From the NCBI GenBank assembly GCA_964650255.1, contig CAZYQT010000002.1, positions 24,540-86,902 of the forward strand: a stretch of DNA of 62,363 nucleotides. The letters are read 5' to 3'. The notes beneath the pieces were generated by a model. It searched no databases. It saw nothing but the letters and a program-made list of their open reading frames with translations, and had not been told where the DNA came from. Source of the DNA: an uncultured Candidatus Saccharibacteria bacterium. Its GTDB lineage: Bacteria; Patescibacteriota; Doudnabacteria; UBA920. Positions 15,119 to 23,453 of the stretch are shown here, one piece after another (the first letter of the stretch is position 1; each line of letters starts with the position of its first letter). Both the position numbers and the translations under genes were made by a program.

Positions 15119-15781
15119 ATGAATAAGTTTATAGTTCCAAAAATTGCATCAAAAATTCATAACATAATCAGTTTTGGTTTTCCCAAAACTTTTTTTGTAG
15201 GTGGTGCAGTGAGAAATTTTCTCTTGGGTAAAAAAATAATTGATGTAGATATTGCCACCAGTGCCACACCAAAACAAATCATTAAACTGCTTGAGCAAAA
15301 TAAAATTAAATACAACTCCAAGCACGCAAAATTTGGAGTCATAATTGCAGAGGGGATAGAGATTACCACCTTTAGAAAAGATCACTATTCAGCCAGCAGA
15401 TACCCCACAGTGGTATTCACCAGGTCTGCTAAAACCGACAGTATTAGGCGGGATTTTACCATAAATGCTCTGTACTACAACCCTATTACTAAGGAGCTCC
15501 TAGACTTTTACGGAGGCACTAAAGACATTAAAAAAAGACTCATCCGTTTCATTGGTGACCCTGCTAAAAGAATTACGGAAGACCCTCTACGGATAGTTCG
15601 TGCGTACCGTTTTTCACTTCAGTATAAATTAAAGTTTGCAAAAGAAACTGAGCAAGCCTTAAAACTTAACATGCATTTGTTAAAAAATATTTCTCAAACT
15701 CGTCTTGCAAAAGAAATTAATTGTCTTGCATCAAAAAATTTACAAAAACAGTTGCAAAAAGTTATACACAACATCTATTGA
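15119..15781 (+). CDS. Short tRNA nucleotidyltransferase / poly(A) polymerase-family protein (head and neck only)
   Basis: GGAVRNFLLG, DVDIAT, RRDFTINAL and EDPLRIVRAYRF motifs in order. It is only 220 aa, so the body and tail domains of full-length CCA enzymes (about 400 aa) are absent. Confidence 0.7.
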   Translation: MNKFIVPKIASKIHNIISFGFPKTFFVGGAVRNFLLGKKIIDVDIATSATPKQIIKLLEQNKIKYNSKHAKFGVIIAEGIEITTFRKDHYSASRYPTVVFTRSAKTDSIRRDFTINALYYNPITKELLDFYGGTKDIKKRLIRFIGDPAKRITEDPLRIVRAYRFSLQYKLKFAKETEQALKLNMHLLKNISQTRLAKEINCLASKNLQKQLQKVIHNIY

Positions 15782-15990: not shown

Positions 15991-16140
15991 ATGGCCGCAA
16001 AAAAGAGAAAAGCTGCAAAGCGCCCAGCTAAGAAAGCTGCAAAGCGCAAGCCAGCTAAGCGTAAGGCTGCAAAGCGCCCAGCTAAGAAAGCTGCAAAGCG
16101 CCCAGCAAAACGCAAAGCCGCTAAGAAGCGCCGTCGTTAA
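15991..16140 (+). CDS. 49-aa Lys/Ala/Pro/Arg-rich basic protein (histone H1 / AlgP-like repeats); absent from the ORF track
   Basis: ATG 15991 sits 10 nt after AGGAG, with TAA at 16138-16140. Product MAAKKRKAAKRPAKKAAKRKPAKRKAAKRPAKKAAKRPAKRKAAKKRRR. A strong terminator follows. The 79-aa minus-strand ORF listed here is its antisense shadow. Confidence 0.6.
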   Translation: MAAKKRKAAKRPAKKAAKRKPAKRKAAKRPAKKAAKRPAKRKAAKKRRR

Positions 16141-16250: not shown

Positions 16251-16538
16251 ATGATCGAATTATCGAGAATTAAAATTCTTGCAGATAAATATGCAGAAAT
16301 GTTGCGAGCACTCGGTTACGAACCGGTGCAGCTTCCTATCACCAAGTTTCCGGAGAGCCATAGACAAGCCCTCAACCATGCTCTGTGGTTAGCAGAAGTA
16401 CGCATTCCAGGACTTCTGGCTGGGGAAACTGAAAAAGCCCAAGCCCGCCTAAAGATCATAGAAACCACCTTTTGGTTCACGAAAATATATACACCTGCCG
16501 ATCTCGACAAGATCAAAGCTCGATTACTAACAACTTAG
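16251..16538 (+). CDS. Hypothetical protein
   Basis: 95-aa ORF with SD GGAGGA at 16233-16238 and TATAAT at 16201-16206. No domain recognised. Confidence 0.45.
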   Translation: MIELSRIKILADKYAEMLRALGYEPVQLPITKFPESHRQALNHALWLAEVRIPGLLAGETEKAQARLKIIETTFWFTKIYTPADLDKIKARLLTT

Positions 16539-16570
16539 GCCGCCCGTGGGCCTATTTCTTTTTATTTTAT
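16536..16570 (+). terminator. Rho-independent terminator
   Basis: TAGGCC ... GGCCTA hairpin followed by a T-rich run. Confidence 0.5.
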
Positions 16571-16580
16571 TTTACATGTC

Positions 16581-16609
16581 TTGCCAAAAACACTGCTAAA
16601 TGCTATAAT
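16581..16609 (+). promoter_or_regulatory. Promoter of the intron-containing initiator tRNA (TTGCCA-17-TGcTATAAT)
   Basis: TTGCCA at 16581-16586 and TGCTATAAT at 16601-16609. The tRNA 5' end is at 16636. Confidence 0.6.
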
Positions 16610-16668
16610 CTTCAAGTATCAATTGATATAAATGACGCGGGGTAGAGCAATTGGCAGCTCGCAAGGCT

Positions 16669-17318
16669 CAATCTCGAGGTAAGACATTTCTATGATTACC
16701 AAGCAAAAAGGCGATATAGCAGAGCAAGCCGCAATTCTTCGGTTATTAGAATACGGTTGGGGAGTCTCAAAACCAATAGGTGACAGACTTTCTTACGATC
16801 TAATAGCTGACGTAAACGGCAAACTAATCAAGCTTCAAGTCAAATCAGCTTGGTTTAATTCTCATGATCAAAACTTTTGTATTGATGTAAGGAGAACCAA
16901 AACCAATCGCCGAAATATGATTCGAAGTTTGTATGCAAAAACAGATTTTGATTTTGCACTTATATATCTTCCAGAGATCAGCATATTTTATGTGATTCCT
17001 GTCGAGGCCTTTGTAAACTTTGGTAGCACGCTTTCTTTAGTGGAAGCTGATAAACGTCAGCGAAAACCAAAATCAGCAGTGTATCGAGAAAATTTTGATC
17101 TTATCTCACTATGGGCTGCGTCAAAGGTAACTTTGACGTGAACCCTATCAAATTCGGGGAACCCTTTAAAATGGCAATCCCGAGCCAAGCCTAATTTATT
17201 TAGGAAGGTGTAGAGACTTAATGGTAGGCATCCTAATTTGGCTTTAGCTAGATGGATGAAGAGAAAGTCCAGACCATCAAATTCGCTTAGGCGAAGCAGT
17301 GAAAACTGTAGTGGTATG
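16669..17318 (+). mobile_element. Group I intron (IC3-like core) carrying a homing-endonuclease ORF
   Basis: The core strings CAAATTCGGGGAA, ATGGCAATCCCGAGCCAAGCC and GAAGGTGTAGAGACTTAATGG closely match the Azoarcus/Anabaena tRNA intron core as I remember it. Guide sequence TATGGGCT (17110-17117) pairs with both exon ends, P2 is a GUAA hairpin at 17119-17138, and the terminal G is at 17318. Confidence 0.75.
16692..17141 (+). CDS. Intron-encoded PD-(D/E)XK homing endonuclease (I-Ssp6803I-like)
   Basis: 149 aa. KGDIAEQAAILRLLEYGWGV...SYDLIADVNGKLIKLQVKS gives the E11 / D36 / Q49-x-K51 arrangement of the small intron-associated PD-(D/E)XK nuclease family. Its size and host gene (tRNA-fMet) match the cyanobacterial precedent. 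Confidence 0.65.
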   Translation: MITKQKGDIAEQAAILRLLEYGWGVSKPIGDRLSYDLIADVNGKLIKLQVKSAWFNSHDQNFCIDVRRTKTNRRNMIRSLYAKTDFDFALIYLPEISIFYVIPVEAFVNFGSTLSLVEADKRQRKPKSAVYRENFDLISLWAASKVTLT

Positions 17319-17380
17319 CATAACCTTGAGGTTCCGGGTTCGAATCCCGGCCCCGCAACCAACCAAAGCGTCTTAAAAAT

Positions 17381-17402
17381 CACCCCATGGGGTGTTTTTT
17401 GT
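17381..17402 (+). terminator. Rho-independent terminator after the tRNA
   Basis: CACCCC-at-GGGGTG followed by TTTTTTGTTTT. Confidence 0.65.
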
Positions 17403-17444
17403 TTTATCTAAAAGGAAAAACGCAAACCATATGTCGCGCAATGT

Positions 17445-17457
17445 GGTTCGAATCCCG
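17445..17457 (+). repeat. Orphan tRNA T-arm fragment (GGTTCGAATCCCG), a repeat of 17337-17349
   Basis: 13-nt identity with the T-arm of the upstream tRNA-fMet, about 95 nt past its 3' end, with no surrounding cloverleaf. Confidence 0.35.
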
Positions 17458-17482
17458 AAAGGGTTATTGACAATTCAAAATT

Positions 17483-17641
17483 CTATTTTTTAAATCGTTT
17501 TTCCCATTCATCACGAAGATTTTCGTCTTCGTTTTTTGTTTCTGTTTCGTCTGCTTTTCGTTTGACGATCTCCCAAACGATTTTGACATACGCTTCCAGA
17601 TTGTTTCTCGATTCTTGATCGAGATCATTATCTTCTTTCAT
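17483..17641 (-). CDS. Small acidic protein (52 aa), not in the ORF track
   Basis: Reverse-strand ATG (CAT at 17639-17641) to TAG (CTA at 17483-17485). Product MKEDNDLDQESRNNLEAYVKIVWEIVKRKADETETKNEDENLRDEWEKRFKK. Confidence 0.25.
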   Translation of the reverse strand: MKEDNDLDQESRNNLEAYVKIVWEIVKRKADETETKNEDENLRDEWEKRFKK

Positions 17642-17713
17642 AGCGCCTCAGTGTAGCGCCGCTAGGATATTTTAAAAAGGCCTGTTTCCGCGCTAGTAGA
17701 AAGTAAATAAAAT

Positions 17714-17739
17714 GACTCCGTTCTGTGAAGAACGGAGTC
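17714..17739 (-). terminator. Terminator of the 305-aa orphan gene
   Basis: Perfect 10-bp stem GACTCCGTTC / GAACGGAGTC with a 6-nt loop. On the minus strand it is followed by TTTTATTTACTT. Confidence 0.7.
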
Positions 17740-17763
17740 GAAGTTACTCACCTAAGTGAGATG

Positions 17764-18681
17764 CTATGGAAACAGCTTGTTGCGATCAAAGTAATAGCCG
17801 CTGACGATGTTGTCGTAACCCTCATGGGCCACAGTCAGGAGTTGGTTATGAGCCGCCTCGTGTATAGTCCTCAGGTTGCAACGTTTTTCCGGGTGGATAA
17901 AGATGGGGGATAGTTCTCCCCCTAAGCCGCAAGTACAACGTAGAGGGATGGTCTCAACAGCTTTGATTTCAAAGCGAGCATTTTGCCAATTCTTGCCACG
18001 AAACCAATGTGGTCCTTCACCATCACGGACATCAGGATTACCGGTAACGATGTCACCGACCTTGAAGTCCCTATATCGAGCTATCCTCTCATTCCATTTA
18101 TAACGATGCTGAAGGTTCTCTTCCCATGATTTGTCCAAGGCATAGCCGAGCTCTCTTTGTGCTTTTGCGTAGAAGCCAGCTTCAAGCCTATGGCGATACA
18201 CGGGTACCTGATACGTCTGACTTAAGAAGCTAATAACGCACTCGAGATCATTATTGGGGCCGGAACCCATGTAGTAGGTGCAGCCGCCTGTCATATACAA
18301 ACGGTTACGTACACATACTTCATAATAAACATCTTGCCGTTCGCCTTCTTCGAAGTCTGGACAGGGAGCAGAGGTCACTCTTATGAAGCTAACACTCTTA
18401 TTGCTCTGTTGATCGGCCATCGCACCATGCGAGTCGTATAGTTCATAACCGATCATACGGATCATACAAGCTAATGCTTGTTGTTCACCTGGGTGACCGA
18501 TAAACTCTACGCGACCGGGGTTTCCGTACAATGCATCTGTTTTCGGCAGTTTCATTCCGAAAGGATGCGTTCCGCCTTCCAAGTCAGCATAGGCAAAACT
18601 CGGGAGATTAGATGAACAGCTTGCTTCTTTAAGCAACCGTGTAAAGCCATGCCTTGCACGATCTGTTTTACTTATTTCCAT
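17764..18681 (-). CDS. Orphan Cys-rich 305-aa protein (contains an HEAAH string)
   Basis: Long ORF with its own terminator. Its codon choice looks more G+C-rich than the surroundings. There is an HExxH-like HEAAH near the C-terminus and several Cys. I do not recognise a family. Confidence 0.55.
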   Translation of the reverse strand: MEISKTDRARHGFTRLLKEASCSSNLPSFAYADLEGGTHPFGMKLPKTDALYGNPGRVEFIGHPGEQQALACMIRMIGYELYDSHGAMADQQSNKSVSFIRVTSAPCPDFEEGERQDVYYEVCVRNRLYMTGGCTYYMGSGPNNDLECVISFLSQTYQVPVYRHRLEAGFYAKAQRELGYALDKSWEENLQHRYKWNERIARYRDFKVGDIVTGNPDVRDGEGPHWFRGKNWQNARFEIKAVETIPLRCTCGLGGELSPIFIHPEKRCNLRTIHEAAHNQLLTVAHEGYDNIVSGYYFDRNKLFP

Positions 18682-18922
18682 TGATTTACACTCCTAAGGG
18701 TTGTGGGCTAGGAAGGTAGCCTAAAGGCTTCCATCCCGCGTTCCCTGCTGCGCGAGAAACAAGCCAATCAATGGATTTTTGATTTCCTATAATTATAACA
18801 TATTAAAGGGTTTATGTCAATACTTACAGGATAGCTCTTCTTAATAATGGGTCTTGTGAGAATCTTCCAAGGGACGTAAAATTTAATGGAACATCCAACA
18901 TTAACAACCGAGTTCCTGATAA

Positions 18923-19870
18923 ATGACAAAAGATATTTTAGAAAAATCTCTCAGTTCGAAACGTGAATCTAAGAGTGTAGAATTCAAAGCTTCGTTTGAT
19001 GTCGACTCAAATGGTGACTGGTGTGAAATCATTAAAGATATTATTGCCATCAGTAATAGTGGTGGGGGCATAATATTGATCGGTATAAGAGATGATGGCA
19101 GACCAAGCAAGGCTAATGTAAACAAAATACTTAGTTTTGACCATGCCGAAGTTGTTACTAAAATTCACAGGTACACGAGTGTTCATTTTGAAGACTTAGA
19201 AATTATTGAGGCCAAAAAGGGATCAGAAAAGATTGCTGCGATTCTAGTTGGTGGATCCGAAGTGCCAATGGTCTTCACAAAACCAGGAACCTACGATATT
19301 GGTAACGCCAAACAAAAGACGGCTTTTTCGAAGGGTACCGTTTATTTTCGACATGGCGCAAAAAGTGAACCAGGTACTTCCGAGGATTTACGGAAATCAA
19401 TGGAAAGGCAATTGAATAACATTCGCAAGGAATGGCTCGGAGGTGTACGAAAAGTTGTTACGGCGTCGCGCAAATCAAAAGTCATAGTTGTCCCTAAAGA
19501 CGTGCAGGAATCCGAGCTCCCTAACGCCTATCCCATTAGGATAGTAGATGATCCGAGTGCTCCAGCGTATCGTAAAATAGATCCGGACAAAAGCCACCCT
19601 TATAGACAGAAGGAGCTATTGTCCGAGCTTAATAGAAGCTTGGGCGGTAAGATTAAAGTAAGCACCTACGATTTGTTGGCAGCCAGACGTTTGTATGGTC
19701 TGGAGGAAGTACCGGCCTTTTGTCATAAATCAAAATTTGGTAGCCCGCAATATAGCAGCGAGATGCTTCAATGGTTATTAAATGAGTACAAGAAGAATGA
19801 TCAGTTTTTCCTCCTCACAAAACAGAAGTACAGTGATCTAGCATCTAAAGTACGCGGAAGCAAACGATAG
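18923..19870 (+). CDS. AlbA_2 (Schlafen-type putative nucleic-acid-binding) domain protein
   Basis: The N-terminal ESKSVEFKASFD...IIKDIIAISNSGGGIILIGIRDDG matches the E-x-K ... AFAN-x-GG-x-IxGV-D-G pattern of the AlbA_2 domain. The C-terminal half is unassigned. Confidence 0.6.
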   Translation: MTKDILEKSLSSKRESKSVEFKASFDVDSNGDWCEIIKDIIAISNSGGGIILIGIRDDGRPSKANVNKILSFDHAEVVTKIHRYTSVHFEDLEIIEAKKGSEKIAAILVGGSEVPMVFTKPGTYDIGNAKQKTAFSKGTVYFRHGAKSEPGTSEDLRKSMERQLNNIRKEWLGGVRKVVTASRKSKVIVVPKDVQESELPNAYPIRIVDDPSAPAYRKIDPDKSHPYRQKELLSELNRSLGGKIKVSTYDLLAARRLYGLEEVPAFCHKSKFGSPQYSSEMLQWLLNEYKKNDQFFLLTKQKYSDLASKVRGSKR

Positions 19871-19920
19871 ATTTAGGACCTACGAGGGAAAATACCTAAG
19901 TCGTTGCTCTGGCATTTTTT

Positions 19921-19929
19921 TGCTACAAT
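19921..19929 (+). promoter_or_regulatory. Extended -10 (TGcTACAAT)
   Basis: The same TGCTACAAT nonamer as upstream of lepA, the 45414 gene and dcd, lying 32 nt upstream of ATG 19962. Confidence 0.45.
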
Positions 19930-19961
19930 TAACCTGCCGCTCAGAAATTAATCTCCCATGA

Positions 19962-20690
19962 ATGCCTAAGAAATTTAAGATCCTCGGGATCAATTCCTCA
20001 CCTCGTAAGAAGAACCGCCCAGCTCAGCAAGACAGCTCAACCAGAGTTCTTTTAGAACACGCCTTAAAAAGTATCAGCCCTAAAGCTGATGTCGAAATTA
20101 TTGATCTAGTAGATTTCGAAGTTCATCCAAGTGAAGGCTGCTATAGCACCGATGAGAATCTTAACCATACACCTTGCACTCACTACGATGATGACTTTCA
20201 GAAAGTCCTTTTCGACAAGTTCATAAAGGCAGATGGTGTAATCTTTTCATCACCAACTTATTGGCTAAGTATGTCCAGCCGGCTCGCTGCTTTGTTCGAA
20301 CGTCTAACCGAAATGGACCCAATCATACACGATCCCAAAGCCCGTTTGCTTCAAGGCAAGGTAGCAGGTGCGATCGCTACTGCACACGTCGAAGGATCCG
20401 CCCAGGTGTGTTACGAAATTTTAACAAAGGCAAATTATCTTGGATTTATTATCCCACCACATGCTTTCGCATTTCATACCGCCGGACAAATGGAGTTCGT
20501 TTACAACAACAAGAAGAACTTGCGAAAGGACAGGTTAGCTTTTGATAACGCCGCAATGGTGGCGAAAAATGTACTCAAGATGTGTGAACTCGTCAGGGGT
20601 TCTAAAAATCGCTGGGAAGTGTTCAACGAAAGGACTCATCGAGCTTCGAAGAATGAGCTAAGGCACAAACAAGATAGGCATGAGAGATAA
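19962..20690 (+). CDS. Flavodoxin-fold NAD(P)H-dependent FMN reductase / iron-sulfur-flavoprotein-like protein
   Basis: KILGINSSPRKKN...ST at the N-terminus (the FMN phosphate-binding loop pattern), ADGVIFSSPTYW, and a Cys-rich insert EGCYS...PCTH. Confidence 0.65.
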   Translation: MPKKFKILGINSSPRKKNRPAQQDSSTRVLLEHALKSISPKADVEIIDLVDFEVHPSEGCYSTDENLNHTPCTHYDDDFQKVLFDKFIKADGVIFSSPTYWLSMSSRLAALFERLTEMDPIIHDPKARLLQGKVAGAIATAHVEGSAQVCYEILTKANYLGFIIPPHAFAFHTAGQMEFVYNNKKNLRKDRLAFDNAAMVAKNVLKMCELVRGSKNRWEVFNERTHRASKNELRHKQDRHER

Positions 20691-20722
20691 ACCTCTATAA
20701 AATTTTACTAGTCATATCTACT

Positions 20723-21439
20723 ATGCAAGCAACTTCCGCTCCCACCGGATTTCGGAACGTCATCGGCATCCCGATTACAGAGATCATCGACAAAAAACAT
20801 AATATTTGGATTGGCATTAGCTTTGGGAATAAGCAATTCACGATTGATAATATCCTCAAACTCACTGAGACTGCTTTGACGTTTACAAAGGATCAAGTTC
20901 TTATCTTTCTTCCGGGTCGATTGCATGCGATCAATTTACAGAGCTTTGAAGGGTTAAGTGAGGAGAGGGCTATTGAGCAGGTCAAGATTGAAGAGACAAA
21001 AAAACAAGAACAGATCGAGGATGCGTTGCAAATTTTTTCGACAGACCAACGAAGTCGTATTGTGTTAGCAACTTATGATGACGTGCTTTCACCGGAATTT
21101 GATCGTCGGCTTCAAACACTCTGTGAAGAGTTTGATCACAATAACGACTTCAAAGATGATATTCATAACGTCGTTCGTGAACTACTGGCATCACGAGGAC
21201 GAACAGTTAATGAAGAGCGACTAACCTTACTTTCAAATTTCGTTTTAGGAGAACTACCTCTATTCCTTGATGGCCTCACGATCAAAGGGGCGCCAGAACG
21301 CTTTACAGTTTTGCTTTACCCAGGGCTAGGCTTCATTGACGAGTTGGTATCTGAAATAAAGGTAGGCTCTCGATATAAGGACTTGCGACAGAAATTAGGG
21401 TCTGGACTGCTAACGGGGGTTGTTGATATATCCTTCTAA
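20723..21439 (+). CDS. Cyclodipeptide synthase (CDPS)-like, tRNA-dependent
   Basis: 238 aa, matching the AlbC size class. IWIGISFGNKQF aligns with AlbC LIGISAGNSYF, which holds the catalytic Ser. SNFVLGELPLFLDG aligns with LNYVLAEAPLFADS, which holds the catalytic Glu. VLLYPG aligns with VLCYH (Tyr202). The alignment is from memory of AlbC. Confidence 0.65.
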   Translation: MQATSAPTGFRNVIGIPITEIIDKKHNIWIGISFGNKQFTIDNILKLTETALTFTKDQVLIFLPGRLHAINLQSFEGLSEERAIEQVKIEETKKQEQIEDALQIFSTDQRSRIVLATYDDVLSPEFDRRLQTLCEEFDHNNDFKDDIHNVVRELLASRGRTVNEERLTLLSNFVLGELPLFLDGLTIKGAPERFTVLLYPGLGFIDELVSEIKVGSRYKDLRQKLGSGLLTGVVDISF

Positions 21440-21460
21440 GGGTTAAATATAGGTATTTAT

Positions 21461-21489
21461 TGACTTTAGCAGAAATATTCGCTAAAATA
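21461..21489 (+). promoter_or_regulatory. Near-consensus promoter (TTGACT-17-TAAAAT)
   Basis: TTGACT at 21461-21466, a 17-nt spacer and TAAAAT at 21484-21489. The next annotated gene is tRNA-Met, about 160 nt downstream. Confidence 0.55.
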
Positions 21490-21650
21490 AGGACTGTTAG
21501 CCCCCATCATACACTTCGACAACTAAAGGCTTATTCCAGAAATAGCGTAGTAGCTTTTGGCTCAACTGAGCCAAATTAGTTCGAGAATCGTCTCGAAACG
21601 GGCAACCAAACAATATTTTAGCGCCATATGGCGCGCGAAGTGACACACGT
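21490..21650 (+). ncRNA. Candidate structured leader or small RNA co-transcribed with tRNA-Met/tRNA-Asp
   Basis: No ORF. Three perfect hairpins are present: TTGGCTCA-ac-TGAGCCAA (21558-21575), TTCGAGA-atcg-TCTCGAA (21582-21599) and the palindrome GCGCCATATGGCGC (21621-21634). Confidence 0.3.
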
Positions 21651-21726
21651 GCCGGCGTAGCTCAGTTGGTAGAGCGAAGGACTCATAAGCCTTAGGTCAC
21701 AGGTTCAATCCCTGTCGCCGGTACCA
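21651..21726 (+). tRNA. Elongator-type tRNA with CAU anticodon (Met, or Ile2 if lysidinylated), CCA encoded
   Basis: Acceptor GCCGGCG/CGCCGGT (G1.U72), D-stem GCTC/GAGC (Y11:R24), loop CTCATAA, T-arm ACAGG-TTCAATC-CCTGT. Confidence 0.8.
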
Positions 21727-21754: not shown

Positions 21755-21831
21755 GGACTGGTAGCTCAGTTGGTTAGAGCGTCCGCCTGTCACGCGGAAG
21801 GTCGCGGGTTCGAGTCCCGTTCAGTCCGCCA
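21755..21831 (+). tRNA. tRNA-Asp (GUC), CCA encoded
   Basis: Acceptor GGACTGG/TCAGTCC, anticodon stem TCCGC/GCGGA, loop CTGTCAC, T-arm GCGGG-TTCGAGT-CCCGT. Confidence 0.85.
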
Positions 21832-23453
21832 TTAGAAAAATCCACAACATTAGCCAACCTGTCAAAGGGTTGGTTTAATGTTATTTGGGCTATTTTTGGT
21901 TCTTTTCCCGCCTTTACGACAAAGTTCGTGAACACTTTTTTCATTATCAGGTCTAAATCTGCCATATTGCGAGTTTTCCTAATAGAATTAGGCAGTTGGC
22001 TAAAAAGTTCGAGGAATACAGGATAGTCCAAAATTGCGTCCTTTTGGTTCTGTAAAGCAACCTTCATTTTATTAAGTTGGATAGTGCGCTGCTTAATATC
22101 TACCTCCTTAATGGCAAAATCCTTTTTGAAATTATCCTTAATTTCGCTATCGGTTTCGTTGAGTAAAAACTCCTTGATTTTGTTCAATTTAATACCGTCC
22201 TGACGCAGTGCCGCTTTTAGAATGTCGTATTCTTTTCGCAAAATAGCTTCTTTCTGTTTAGATACTACTTTCATTTCCTGCACATAATGGTCGTATGCTT
22301 TCCGTGAAGTAAAATCGTGGTTAGACAAAAAGTCGCAAGCCGCGTCAATTACAACCTTTGCCCTAACTGACTTGTTTTGAAAAAGACACTCGTTAGTTTC
22401 GCAGCGATAGTAGAAATACTGCCGCTTACCTTCGTTTGTCTTTTTGGAAGTCAAACCCGCAGCCATTGGCTGACCGCAGCCCTCACACAAAATCATACCG
22501 CGCATTAAATCAGCTTTTATGCTTTCGGGCTTATACTGCTTCCGCGATAATTTGAACGCTCTTGAAAATGGCTTGGTCTTGTTAATTTCAAAAAAATCGT
22601 CCACGCTGACTGCTGGCACAAAATTATAAGCTTCGGTTAGGTCTTTAATGTTATTTCCGTGCAATAGCACGCCTGCATAGGAGGGGTCTTTTAGAAAATC
22701 AGCTACGCGCTTAATATCTATCTTGTAGATAGTTTGCTTCCCGTCTTTACCTCTTTTCACAGAATACTTGTTGCTGTTGAGATATTCTACGATTGCTTCC
22801 AAAGTAGCACCCTGCTTACGCATTTGGAAGGAATTTTTAATAAGCACAAAATTATTGCCGTCAGGTCGCAAGAATTGGTTACGGTCTTTATAATAGCCGT
22901 GCTTACCCTTGTTAATGTATTTACCTTCCTCAATACTGCGTTTATTGCCACGCAAAACATTATCGCTCAACTGGTCGGAATACTGCTTGGATAACACAAA
23001 GGAGATACCGAGTAGCATTTTGCCTATGGTATTGTTTTCAAATGTAAAACTGACAAATTTGAGGTCTTTGATTATTTGCTTATCAAGCAAGTCAATCAAC
23101 TCTCCTGCGTCTTTCATATTACGCGCCAACCTATCGGGGTGCCACGCGATAATACCTTCAAACTTACCCTGCTTAAACCCTTCTACCATTGTCCTAAACT
23201 TGGGTCGGATATCAGGTTCTTTTGCGCTCTCCGCTTCGTTTATCGTTTCAATTACATTTAATCCAAAACGCTCCGCAAGTTCGTTACACTCGCTGTTTTG
23301 GTCGCCGAGCGAACGGACTTGCTTTTCTTCGCTTTCGCTGGATTTGCGAGCATAGATAACATAACGATACTGCGACTTATCAATATCGCTGTCTTTGGGT
23401 TTTAGCATACTGCTTAATATGTCTGCTAAATCTTTGGTTGTATAGTTATCCAT
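21774..23453 (-). CDS. Large serine recombinase (resolvase catalytic domain, recombinase domain and Zn-ribbon); 3' end runs 58 nt into tRNA-Asp
   Basis: YVIYARKSSESEE (catalytic Ser), DRLARN, then CEGCGQPM...YYRC for the zinc ribbon. The last 19 codons (...NGGLNGTRTRDLPRDRRTL) are the antisense of tRNA-Asp. Confidence 0.85.
   Translation of the reverse strand: MDNYTTKDLADILSSMLKPKDSDIDKSQYRYVIYARKSSESEEKQVRSLGDQNSECNELAERFGLNVIETINEAESAKEPDIRPKFRTMVEGFKQGKFEGIIAWHPDRLARNMKDAGELIDLLDKQIIKDLKFVSFTFENNTIGKMLLGISFVLSKQYSDQLSDNVLRGNKRSIEEGKYINKGKHGYYKDRNQFLRPDGNNFVLIKNSFQMRKQGATLEAIVEYLNSNKYSVKRGKDGKQTIYKIDIKRVADFLKDPSYAGVLLHGNNIKDLTEAYNFVPAVSVDDFFEINKTKPFSRAFKLSRKQYKPESIKADLMRGMILCEGCGQPMAAGLTSKKTNEGKRQYFYYRCETNECLFQNKSVRAKVVIDAACDFLSNHDFTSRKAYDHYVQEMKVVSKQKEAILRKEYDILKAALRQDGIKLNKIKEFLLNETDSEIKDNFKKDFAIKEVDIKQRTIQLNKMKVALQNQKDAILDYPVFLELFSQLPNSIRKTRNMADLDLIMKKVFTNFVVKAGKEPKIAQITLNQPFDRLANVVDFSNGGLNGTRTRDLPRDRRTL

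Follow-up and report, generated by a model that had tools for sequence, protein, structure and literature searches.

A group I intron of class fMet.2Ug (IC3 type), very probably self-splicing and mobile, interrupts an initiator tRNA gene of a Patescibacteria (CPR) bacterium between U33 and C34, after the second base of the anticodon loop. The gene lies in a window of 62,363 nucleotides, which is the whole stretch of DNA analysed here. Its exons (16636-16668, 33 nt, and 17319-17361, 43 nt) are located exactly where an earlier note on this DNA had placed them, and the spliced sequence, CGCGGGGUAGAGCAAUUGGCAGCUCGCAAGGCU joined to CAUAACCUUGAGGUUCCGGGUUCGAAUCCCGGCCCCGCAACCA, was recognized by ARAGORN as a 76-nt tRNA-Met(CAU). 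When introns were allowed, ARAGORN also recovered the split gene in situ and placed a 650-nt intron at position 34. Only four tRNAs of the window were detected by ARAGORN in its default mode and by the Rfam tRNA model, both of which missed the split tRNA-fMet, so a genome annotated with such standard finders would seem to have no initiator tRNA. For comparison, 64 distinct metagenomic tRNA-fMet introns at the same site (637-713 nt) were collected, 61 of which were included in an RNAalifold consensus.

The tRNA has the CAU anticodon, and two hallmarks of initiators proposed in the earlier note, the C1xA72 mismatch and A11:U24 in the D stem (GAGC/GCUC), are both present in the ARAGORN fold; a 1x72 mismatch was found in all 64 homologous tRNAs. 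The other CAU tRNA of the window (at 21651) carries a paired G1.U72 and C11:G24 and is of the elongator type, and the split gene is the sole initiator-type methionine tRNA gene within the 62-kb window. The anticodon stem, on which the earlier note was silent, consists of A29:U41, G30:C40 and G31:C39, with two G:C pairs only in place of three consecutive ones. The A29:U41 variant is common to 19 of the 64 homologous loci. According to a previous study, alpha-proteobacteria and some mycoplasmas naturally have the corresponding 'au/GC/GC' variant, in which the critical G30 is kept and the tRNA is functional (PMC5389676). The gene is still classed as an initiator tRNA gene, because the three-G:C feature is highly conserved yet not absolute.

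The Rfam model Intron_gpI (RF00028, gathering score 50) matches positions 17097-17290 with 70.7 bits (E 6e-16, model positions 1-253), which is its sole match in the window. The 5' splice site is marked by a U16668.G17114 wobble and the intron ends in G17318; among the ambiguous CA/CA junctions, the one between U33 and C34 alone yields both U-1 and omega-G, which are present in 64/64 homologues. About a dozen homologous loci were called tRNA-Leu(CAA/UAA) or tRNA-Ser(CGA) by ARAGORN and were recognized as misparsed tRNA-fMet genes, since the intron begins with CA or CG and the 3' exon with CA; their splice sites are settled by the U-1/omega-G rule.

Compensatory double changes were detected in 37 of the 57 predicted consensus pairs (61 sequences), distributed across P2, P3, P6a, P8, P9 and P9a, including all nine predicted pairs of P2 (the hairpin of the window itself has eight), five of the six pairs of P3 and all seven of P6a, four of which are present in the window. 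The pairs of P1, P10, P4 and P7, or their partners, are invariant, so covariation cannot test these helices. For P1 and P10 the covariation check suggested in the earlier note was uninformative, as the exon bases GGCU and CAUAA are constant across the homologues, and the guide is invariant because these exon bases are. A further helix, UGGGC-GUCCA near P7, was proposed by RNAalifold with the exons omitted; all five of its pairs are effectively invariant, and it was taken as an artefact.

In the internal guide, G17114-U17117 pair with exon bases G30-U33, with a U33.G17114 wobble, U17112-G17113 pair with intron nucleotides 1-2, and U17110-G17113 pair with the CAUA of the 3' exon to form P10. Of 61 homologues, 59 carry UGGGC as the guide core and two carry AGGGC. 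The exon contributes just 4 bp to P1, a short segment in which two pairs are wobbles and the fourth pair is missing in 7/61 homologues. The group I assignment made in the earlier note is borne out by the RF00028 match, the covariation and the universal U-1 and omega-G, and the core strings that it quoted, its guide (17110-17117), its P2 hairpin with a GUAA loop (17119-17138), its terminal G17318 and its ORF (16692-17141) were all found in the sequence as described. The 4-bp P10 that it proposed is present in the window but is particular to the subclade of the window, with 3 bp in most homologues. Its IC3 typing is also supported: the ribozyme shares about 72% identity with that of an intron encoding an endonuclease 95% identical to I-Ssp6803I, and fMet.2Ug belongs to the four classical classes of tRNA introns, all marked IC3 (Williams 2020, bioRxiv 10.1101/2020.01.27.920355). 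P5 is compact, P2 is GNRA-looped (61/61) and the last hairpin carries a GAAA loop, while the IC3 label itself comes from the literature classification.

As judged from these pairings, P1 would form between the guide and the four bases that end the 5' exon, the U33.G17114 wobble lying at the splice site, and a free guanosine bound by P7, which should hold the guanosine-binding site, would attack the 5' splice site. The CAUA of the 3' exon would dock on the same guide as P10, aided by the anticodon stem of the tRNA; G17318 would then be exchanged and the exons ligated into the mature tRNA-fMet.

Table 1. Features of the split tRNA-fMet locus (positions are those of the window).
Feature	Position	Strand	Basis and remarks
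Sigma-70-type promoter TTGCCA, 17 nt, TG-TATAAT	16581-16609	+	11/12 consensus matches; about 27 nt 5' of the tRNA
5' exon of tRNA-fMet (nt 1-33)	16636-16668	+	ARAGORN; ends in U33 = U-1 of the 5' splice site; GGCU end in 64/64 homologous loci
Group I intron, 650 nt, class fMet.2Ug, IC3 type	16669-17318	+	ARAGORN position 34; RF00028; 64 distinct homologues
P1 extension, 5' strand GAGGUAAGA	16676-16684	+	9 bp with 17099-17107; holds Shine-Dalgarno-like GAGGU
Homing endonuclease gene, 149 codons, I-Ssp6803I family (PD-(D/E)XK)	16692-17141	+	PF11645, 2OST
P1 extension, 3' strand UCUUAUCUC	17099-17107	+	Pairs with 16676-16684; inside the ORF (L-I-S codons)
Internal guide sequence UAUGGGCU	17110-17117	+	Sequence pairing
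P2 hairpin, 8 bp, GUAA (GNRA) loop	17119-17138	+	Inside the ORF; GNRA in 61/61 homologues
P3 (region 17144-17228)	17144-17149 with 17223-17228	+	RNAalifold consensus, 61 sequences
P4	17154-17159 with 17178-17183	+	Enclosed by P3; almost invariant
P5	17162-17174	+	Enclosed by P3
P6/P6a	17184-17209	+	Enclosed by P3
P7, 5' strand GACUU	17215-17219	+	Enclosed by P3; P7 assigned by hand
P8 hairpin	17229-17258	+	5/6 pairs with compensatory changes
P7, 3' strand AAGUC	17265-17269	+	Pairs with GACUU 17215-17219; invariant in all aligned homologues
3' domain	17274-17318	+	10/12 pairs compensatory; terminal G in 64/64 homologues
3'-domain closing helix	17274-17277 with 17311-17314	+	
P9	17282-17295	+	
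P9a, GAAA loop	17297-17308	+	
Omega-G	17318	+	
3' exon of tRNA-fMet (nt 34-76)	17319-17361	+	Starts with the CAU anticodon; CAUAA start in 64/64 homologues; CCA encoded
Intrinsic-terminator-like hairpin CACCCCATGGGGTG, then T-run	17381-17404	+	20 nt 3' of the tRNA
Intron-less target CGCAAGGCUCAUAACCUUGAGG			Predicted substrate of the ORF product
Predicted CPR cleavage target GCUCGCAAGGCUCAUAACCUUGAGGUU			Predicted substrate of the ORF product

The intron-encoded protein belongs to the I-Ssp6803I family of PD-(D/E)XK endonucleases, as the earlier note had proposed. Pfam PF11645 (PDDEXK_5; curated cut-off 26.1 bits) matches with 153.9 bits (E 3.4e-45), residues 1-137 covering profile positions 1-137 of 138, and chain A of PDB 2OST (I-Ssp6803I) aligns without gaps to residues 3-142 (140 residues, E 1.7e-52, about 60% identity). 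D36, Q49 and K51 do not vary among 13 aligned relatives and coincide with identical residues in 2OST; these three residues are reportedly catalytic in I-Ssp6803I (Zhao et al. 2007). E11 is also invariant in the relatives. A total of 1305 homologous proteins were found, and the family is present in Cyanobacteria, Patescibacteria, Bacteroidota and Nitrospirota at identities of at least 60%. Some homologues in Patescibacteria and many cyanobacteria are named 'group I intron-associated PD-(D/E)XK endonuclease' by NCBI; an NCBIfam scan of the ORF returned no family, and this name probably comes from a rule outside the library scanned. A scan of viral contigs gave distant homologues only (at most 51% identity), none of them within a tRNA-fMet intron. 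The gene is under strong purifying selection as a protein, with a dN/dS of about 0.07-0.10 in codons 1-135, which cover the nuclease domain, and a synonymous divergence above 1.6 that drops to 0.1-0.5 in the 14 codons overlapping the RNA structure. By analogy, the endonuclease would cleave tRNA-fMet genes that lack the intron, within the anticodon stem-loop, and repair would copy the intron in.

It is conceivable, if rather unlikely, that the ribozyme splices while the endonuclease no longer drives mobility, the intron being a vertically inherited, fixed passenger of the CPR clade. The ORF would then be kept for another reason, such as help in RNA folding, or because all copies in the population are already occupied. 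The window is syntenic with Patescibacteria MAGs, in agreement with the CPR host proposed earlier, and three Patescibacteria/Doudnabacteria MAGs show the same arrangement with conserved neighbours. The intron is 76-82% identical to those of its syntenic CPR relatives and the flanking genes are 70-82% identical; this similar divergence is in line with vertical descent and does not point to recent homing. Every close relative found carries the intron at the same place, and the ribozyme is kept in some homologues with decayed ORFs of 59 and 22 codons. However, a passenger accords poorly with the selection on the nuclease domain and the intact D36/Q49/K51 motif, and the spread over four phyla at such identities is hard to explain without horizontal movement. 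The I-Ssp6803I family is also not known to have maturase activity.

For the mobile intron that we favour, the arrangement of the ORF suggests a trade-off between translation and folding. As previously described from the sequence, the P1 loop houses the ORF, whose reading frame continues across the guide and P2, a layout shared with the Synechocystis-type intron; the UGA stop of the ORF (17139-17141) falls in J2/3, after P2. In 61 homologues an equivalent duplex extends P1 although the sequences differ (mean -13.1 kcal/mol versus -8.6 when shuffled). The putative ribosome-binding site of the ORF is located in the 5' strand of this long P1 extension, at a GAGGU-to-AUG spacing of 11 nt, which is long for such a site, and the last 14 codons encode the guide and P2 together with the 3' strand of the extension. 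Since GAGGU lies in the P1-extension strand, a correctly folded ribozyme would hide this site, and translation of the ORF would open P1 and P2, so that endonuclease synthesis and splicing should exclude each other on one RNA molecule. A further proposal, that the intron is fixed in a single-copy initiator tRNA gene and has been co-opted as a checkpoint of the GTP pool or RNA folding, with the P1 extension as a switch and A29:U41 co-evolving with the specificity of the endonuclease, seems improbable. If the intron were so fixed, no translation could start without a ribozyme that requires guanosine; a checkpoint would make the initiator tRNA supply depend on the GTP pool or on the conditions for RNA folding, and a switch would let the P1 extension toggle between endonuclease and tRNA production.

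The promoter upstream of the tRNA is the single promoter-like site found in 16450-17500, and a terminator-like hairpin of the upstream gene is located at 16536-16554. The split tRNA-fMet gene forms a predicted transcription unit of its own, from promoter to terminator. The retention of a near-consensus promoter and a terminator, and the position of the gene in a conserved fMet-Met-Asp tRNA cluster, as in its relatives, both speak against a dead gene, in which the intron would stay unspliced and the cell would rely on another, uninterrupted initiator tRNA gene. Such a pseudogene would be in keeping with a tRNA scan that covered 62 kb of the genome, with the short exon segment of P1 and with an anticodon stem that lacks one of the three usual G:C pairs. 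Nevertheless, the core helices, U-1, omega-G, guide and GNRA loops are intact and match those of more than 60 homologues, A29:U41 is a shared and known functional variant, and an active homing endonuclease would be expected to convert any intron-less copy; we regard a dead gene as very improbable. An assembly or binning artefact, with a cyanobacterial intron-bearing fragment joined to a CPR contig, can be practically dismissed: the closest characterised relative is cyanobacterial and mis-binned scaffolds are a known caution in metagenome projects (Williams 2020), but the exons, with their CAAGG/CCUUG anticodon stem, belong to the CPR type and are unlike cyanobacterial ones, the same locus and neighbours occur in independent Patescibacteria assemblies, the identical protein is encoded on contigs of three further ENA assemblies, and the G+C content is flat across the region.

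The novelty of a self-splicing initiator tRNA intron in CPR was overstated in the earlier note, which treated the cyanobacterial intron as a precedent. The intron of the window is a member of that precedent's own family rather than a mere analogue, NCBI already names the protein in Patescibacteria, and tRNA group I introns in CPR and unnamed-phylum assemblies were noted before (Lui 2021; Williams 2020), the 2020 survey having found tRNA introns frequent in metagenome assemblies of unnamed phyla. The element is real but ordinary, a close relative of a well-studied cyanobacterial intron, and its novelty is low; the known mechanism of such elements is unchanged by these findings. The new details are the covarying P1 extension, which is predicted to hide the ribosome-binding site of the ORF, and A29:U41 in the tRNA. 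The I-Ssp6803I/tRNA-fMet intron has reportedly been regarded in the past as the sole bacterial chromosomal intron that is mobile and invasive; it now represents a large multi-phylum family with more than 1300 endonuclease variants, and many natural endonuclease/target pairs could serve the engineering of PD-(D/E)XK homing endonucleases. The family is also represented in CPR bacteria, whose genomes are very small and in which self-splicing would be essential if the initiator tRNA gene were single-copy.

The tRNA-fMet intron of Synechocystis sp. PCC 6803 and its endonuclease are reportedly the subject of Biniszkiewicz et al. 1994, Bonocora & Shub 2001 and, for the structure 2OST, Zhao et al. 2007. 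The host gene and the insertion site (GGCU/CAUAA, U33/C34) are the same as in the window, and the sizes are close, with 655 nt and the 150-aa I-Ssp6803I in Synechocystis (PMC1995217) against 650 nt and 149 aa in the window, while the hosts are a cyanobacterium and a member of the Patescibacteria (CPR), respectively. A homologue (L107) with an endonuclease 95% identical to I-Ssp6803I, on a contig that includes just the final three bases of the 5' exon, was used as a stand-in for the Synechocystis type. Its ribozyme is identical to that of the window in 179 of 247 aligned columns (~72%), and its ORF is placed likewise, starting about 20 nt into the intron, running across the guide and P2 and ending with UGA in J2/3. 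Unlike the window, with its 4-bp P10 and E11, the Synechocystis type has a 3-bp P10, and the I-Ssp6803I chain of 2OST has Q at residue 11. The targets also differ in three anticodon-stem pairs (CAAGG/CCUUG in the window, UCGGG/CCCGA in Synechocystis), suggesting that the specificity of the endonuclease may have shifted.

The IC3 introns of Azoarcus tRNA-Ile and Anabaena tRNA-Leu(UAA) share with the window a compact core, P2, a short P5 and GNRA loops on P2 and the last hairpin, and the core strings CAAAUUCGGxGAA, AUGGxAAxxCCGAGCCAAGC and GAAGGUGUAGAGACU presumably match the Azoarcus sequence. However, these introns interrupt other tRNAs at another position of the anticodon loop and have no ORF, which the intron of the window does. 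Further counterparts are found in Scytonema hofmannii PCC 7110 and Spirosoma fluviale, where the interrupted tRNA, the insertion site and the ribozyme family agree with those of the window and the endonuclease shares 59-62% identity with its counterpart there. In both, an ORF-less intron of 243-310 nt is accompanied by a free-standing endonuclease gene 60-75 nt 3' of the tRNA, so that the gene lies outside the intron, which differs from its location in the P1 loop in the window.

An initiator tRNA gene of the window is divided into two half-genes, 16636-16668 and 17319-17361, exactly as placed in the earlier note, and the joined halves form a 76-nt RNA that is folded by ARAGORN as tRNA-Met(CAU). 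With long introns allowed, ARAGORN also recovered the split gene in situ and placed an intron of 650 nt at position 34; in the scan of the window, it was absent from the output of default ARAGORN and of the Rfam tRNA model. Both initiator marks previously reported, C1xA72 and A11:U24, are present in the joined tRNA, which encodes its own CCA. One initiator hallmark is missing, because A29:U41 replaces the first of the three conserved G:C pairs in the anticodon stem (CAAGG/CCUUG, 16662-16666 with 17324-17328), leaving just two G:C pairs. According to a previous study, this 'au/GC/GC' stem is a natural variant of alpha-proteobacteria and some mycoplasmas, with G30 as the critical base (PMC5389676), and it is common to 19 of 64 homologous intron-bearing tRNA-fMet loci. 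The other CAU tRNA of the window (21651) is not an initiator, since its bases 1 and 72 are paired and its D stem has C11:G24. A promoter and a terminator flank the split gene, indicating that it is a transcription unit of its own. Just upstream of the tRNA cluster, a 220-aa protein (15119-15781) carries the poly(A) polymerase/CCA-adding head domain (PF01743) alone; CCA is already encoded in every tRNA of the window. A 49-codon ORF (15991-16140) encodes a Lys/Ala-rich repeat peptide (AAKKRKAAKRPAKK...), resembling histone-H1-type DNA-binding tails.

Features of the split tRNA-fMet gene, its intron and the neighbouring genes
Feature	Position	Remarks
Near-consensus promoter	16581-16609	5' of tRNA-fMet gene
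P1	exon G30-U33 and intron C1-A2 with U17112-U17117	wobble U33.G17114
P10	U17110-G17113 with 3' exon CAUA	
P2	17119-17138	GUAA loop
P3	17144-17149 with 17223-17228	
P4	17154-17159 with 17178-17183	
P5	17162-17174	short helix
P6/P6a	17184-17209	
P7	17215-17219 with 17265-17269	
P8	17229-17258	
3' domain closing helix	17274-17277 with 17311-17314	encloses P9 and P9a
P9	17282-17295	
P9a	17297-17308	GAAA loop
omega-G	17318	
Terminator hairpin	17381-17394	3' of tRNA-fMet gene
Schlafen/AlbA_2-domain protein	18923-19870	
FMN reductase	19962-20690	
Cyclodipeptide synthase	20723-21439	PF16715, E 1.4e-15
Large serine recombinase	21774-23453	minus strand; Resolvase, Recombinase and Zn-ribbon domains

The insert is a group I intron, as had been proposed: Rfam RF00028 matches 17097-17290 with 70.7 bits (E 6e-16; gathering score 50), the sole match of this model in 62 kb. 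Helices were assigned by hand and from a consensus fold of 61 homologues, in which 37 of the 57 pairs show compensatory double changes, distributed across P2, P3, P6a, P8, P9, and P9a. The L2 loop is GNRA in all 61, and the guide core UGGGC is found in 59. P1 and P10 are beyond the reach of covariation, since the exon bases paired with the guide are invariant; the 4-bp P10 is restricted to the subclade of the window, and the majority of homologues carry AAUG and form 3 bp. The intron would be spliced in the two steps usual for group I introns, during which the anticodon stem of the tRNA would keep the exons together.

The description in the earlier note can be extended by a 9-bp P1 extension (16676-16684 with 17099-17107), which lies beyond a small internal loop and closes the ORF-bearing loop. 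Its 5' strand contains GAGGU, 11 nt 5' of the AUG and the only Shine-Dalgarno-like sequence ahead of the ORF, and its 3' strand falls in codons 136-139 (D-L-I-S). The duplex is maintained across the 61 homologues despite differing sequences (for example, CCGCAGGAUUAAC with GUUAAUCCUGC in the homologous locus L029), with a mean of -13.1 kcal/mol versus -8.6 for shuffled partners. The folded ribozyme would thus mask the predicted ribosome-binding site, and a ribosome completing the ORF would in turn have to open the P1 extension together with the guide and P2. We therefore infer, in support of the competition suggested earlier, that translation and ribozyme folding compete on the intron RNA; comparable control has been described in a review for other core-entering intron ORFs (PMC3984707).

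The 149-codon ORF (16692-17141) gives an end-to-end match to Pfam PF11645 (PDDEXK_5) with E 3.4e-45 and aligns gap-free over 140 residues with 2OST, the solved structure of I-Ssp6803I (E 1.7e-52), which bears out its assignment to this PD-(D/E)XK family. The D...QxK pattern noticed earlier corresponds to D36, Q49, and K51, invariant across an alignment of 13 relatives. Residue 11 is E in the window protein, in 12 other aligned relatives, and in 95%- and 86%-identical relatives; it is Q in 2OST chain A. Compared with CPR relatives, dN/dS is 0.07-0.10 (codons 1-135), indicating strong purifying selection on the protein. Synonymous divergence falls from above 1.6 upstream to 0.1-0.5 within the last 14 codons, as expected if the same bases also form RNA helices. 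The ORF runs past J2/3 into P3-P7 in 25 of 64 homologues, where the stop is lost (165-199 aa), and is truncated to 59 and 22 codons in two others (L008 and L010) with the ribozyme intact.

When one genome per species was scanned, the arrangement of the window recurred in two MAGs labelled 'Patescibacteria group' and one Candidatus Doudnabacteria MAG, with introns of 640-645 nt at position 34 and endonucleases 74-84% identical to that of the window. The first of these MAGs shares the gene order of the window (ATP synthase genes, tRNA-fMet, then tRNA-Met and tRNA-Asp), with a nucleotide identity of 70-82%, confirming that the host is a CPR bacterium. Relatives are encoded on 296 stretches of JGI metagenomes. 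The tRNA-fMet gene is split at the same place in 68 of 80 fetched loci, yielding 64 distinct introns (637-713 nt), all with U-1, the terminal intron G, and the 1x72 mismatch. In this clade, the intron diverges about as much as its flanks, which fits vertical descent, and the element may now be an immobile passenger. We consider this the less likely reading: its spread across phyla at 60% protein identity or above and the strong selection acting on the nuclease point to present or recent mobility. The locus is unlikely to be a dead gene, for the ribozyme core is intact, promoter and terminator are retained, and the gene has kept its conserved place in the tRNA cluster. Its CPR-type exons rule out an assembly artefact, as do the shared gene order in independent assemblies and the identical copies present in three additional ENA assemblies.

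About 4.3 kb (17400-21650) between tRNA-fMet and the tRNA-Met/tRNA-Asp pair are missing from the syntenic Patescibacteria loci (L001-L003). Besides three of the tabulated genes, this region encodes a protein without a Pfam match (17764-18681, minus strand). Cyclodipeptide synthases are enzymes that use aminoacyl-tRNAs. A second insertion relative to L001 (21774-25128) starts from the 3' end of the tRNA-Asp gene. It contains the recombinase gene and an imperfect direct repeat of 21 nt (copies at 21920 and 25102) and resembles an element that has integrated at this tRNA gene.

ORF-less introns of 243-310 nt occupy the same tRNA-fMet site in Scytonema hofmannii PCC 7110 (L111 1106-1983), Spirosoma fluviale (L004 2055-2917), and two further loci (L021, L023), showing that the tRNA-fMet intron also occurs in Bacteroidota. 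In all four, a free-standing I-Ssp6803I homologue is located 60-75 nt 3' of the tRNA, beyond a terminator-like hairpin; this arrangement may represent a stage before or after entry of the endonuclease gene into the intron. On a 178-kb IMG/VR viral contig (L086 3001-3495), a 51%-identical homologue abuts the start of an uninterrupted tRNA-Met(CAU), with a further weak tRNA match immediately upstream; a group I intron was not detected at this locus.

The tRNA-fMet intron of Synechocystis PCC 6803 is 655 nt long and encodes the 150-aa I-Ssp6803I (PMC1995217). A contig (L107) that starts at the last three exon bases (GCU) encodes an endonuclease 95% identical to the 2OST sequence; its ORF runs from intron nt 21 through the guide and P2 to the same J2/3 UGA as in the window, and its ribozyme is ~72% identical. 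The window element therefore belongs to the Synechocystis-type family, beyond mere resemblance. The observation and interpretation of the earlier note are correct. According to Williams (bioRxiv 10.1101/2020.01.27.920355), 5292 tRNA genes are split by group I introns among 80,413 bacterial genomes; fMet.2Ug (anticodon-loop site 2, U-1, omega-G) is one of four classical classes, all marked IC3, and unnamed-phylum metagenome assemblies, which average 0.49 interrupted tRNA genes per genome, are surpassed by cyanobacteria alone. Group I introns in some tRNAs of circularised CPR genomes were remarked on by Lui et al. (PMC8172020), and the endonuclease is already named by NCBI in Patescibacteria. 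The window element joins a well-characterised kind of intron, already noticed in its host group.
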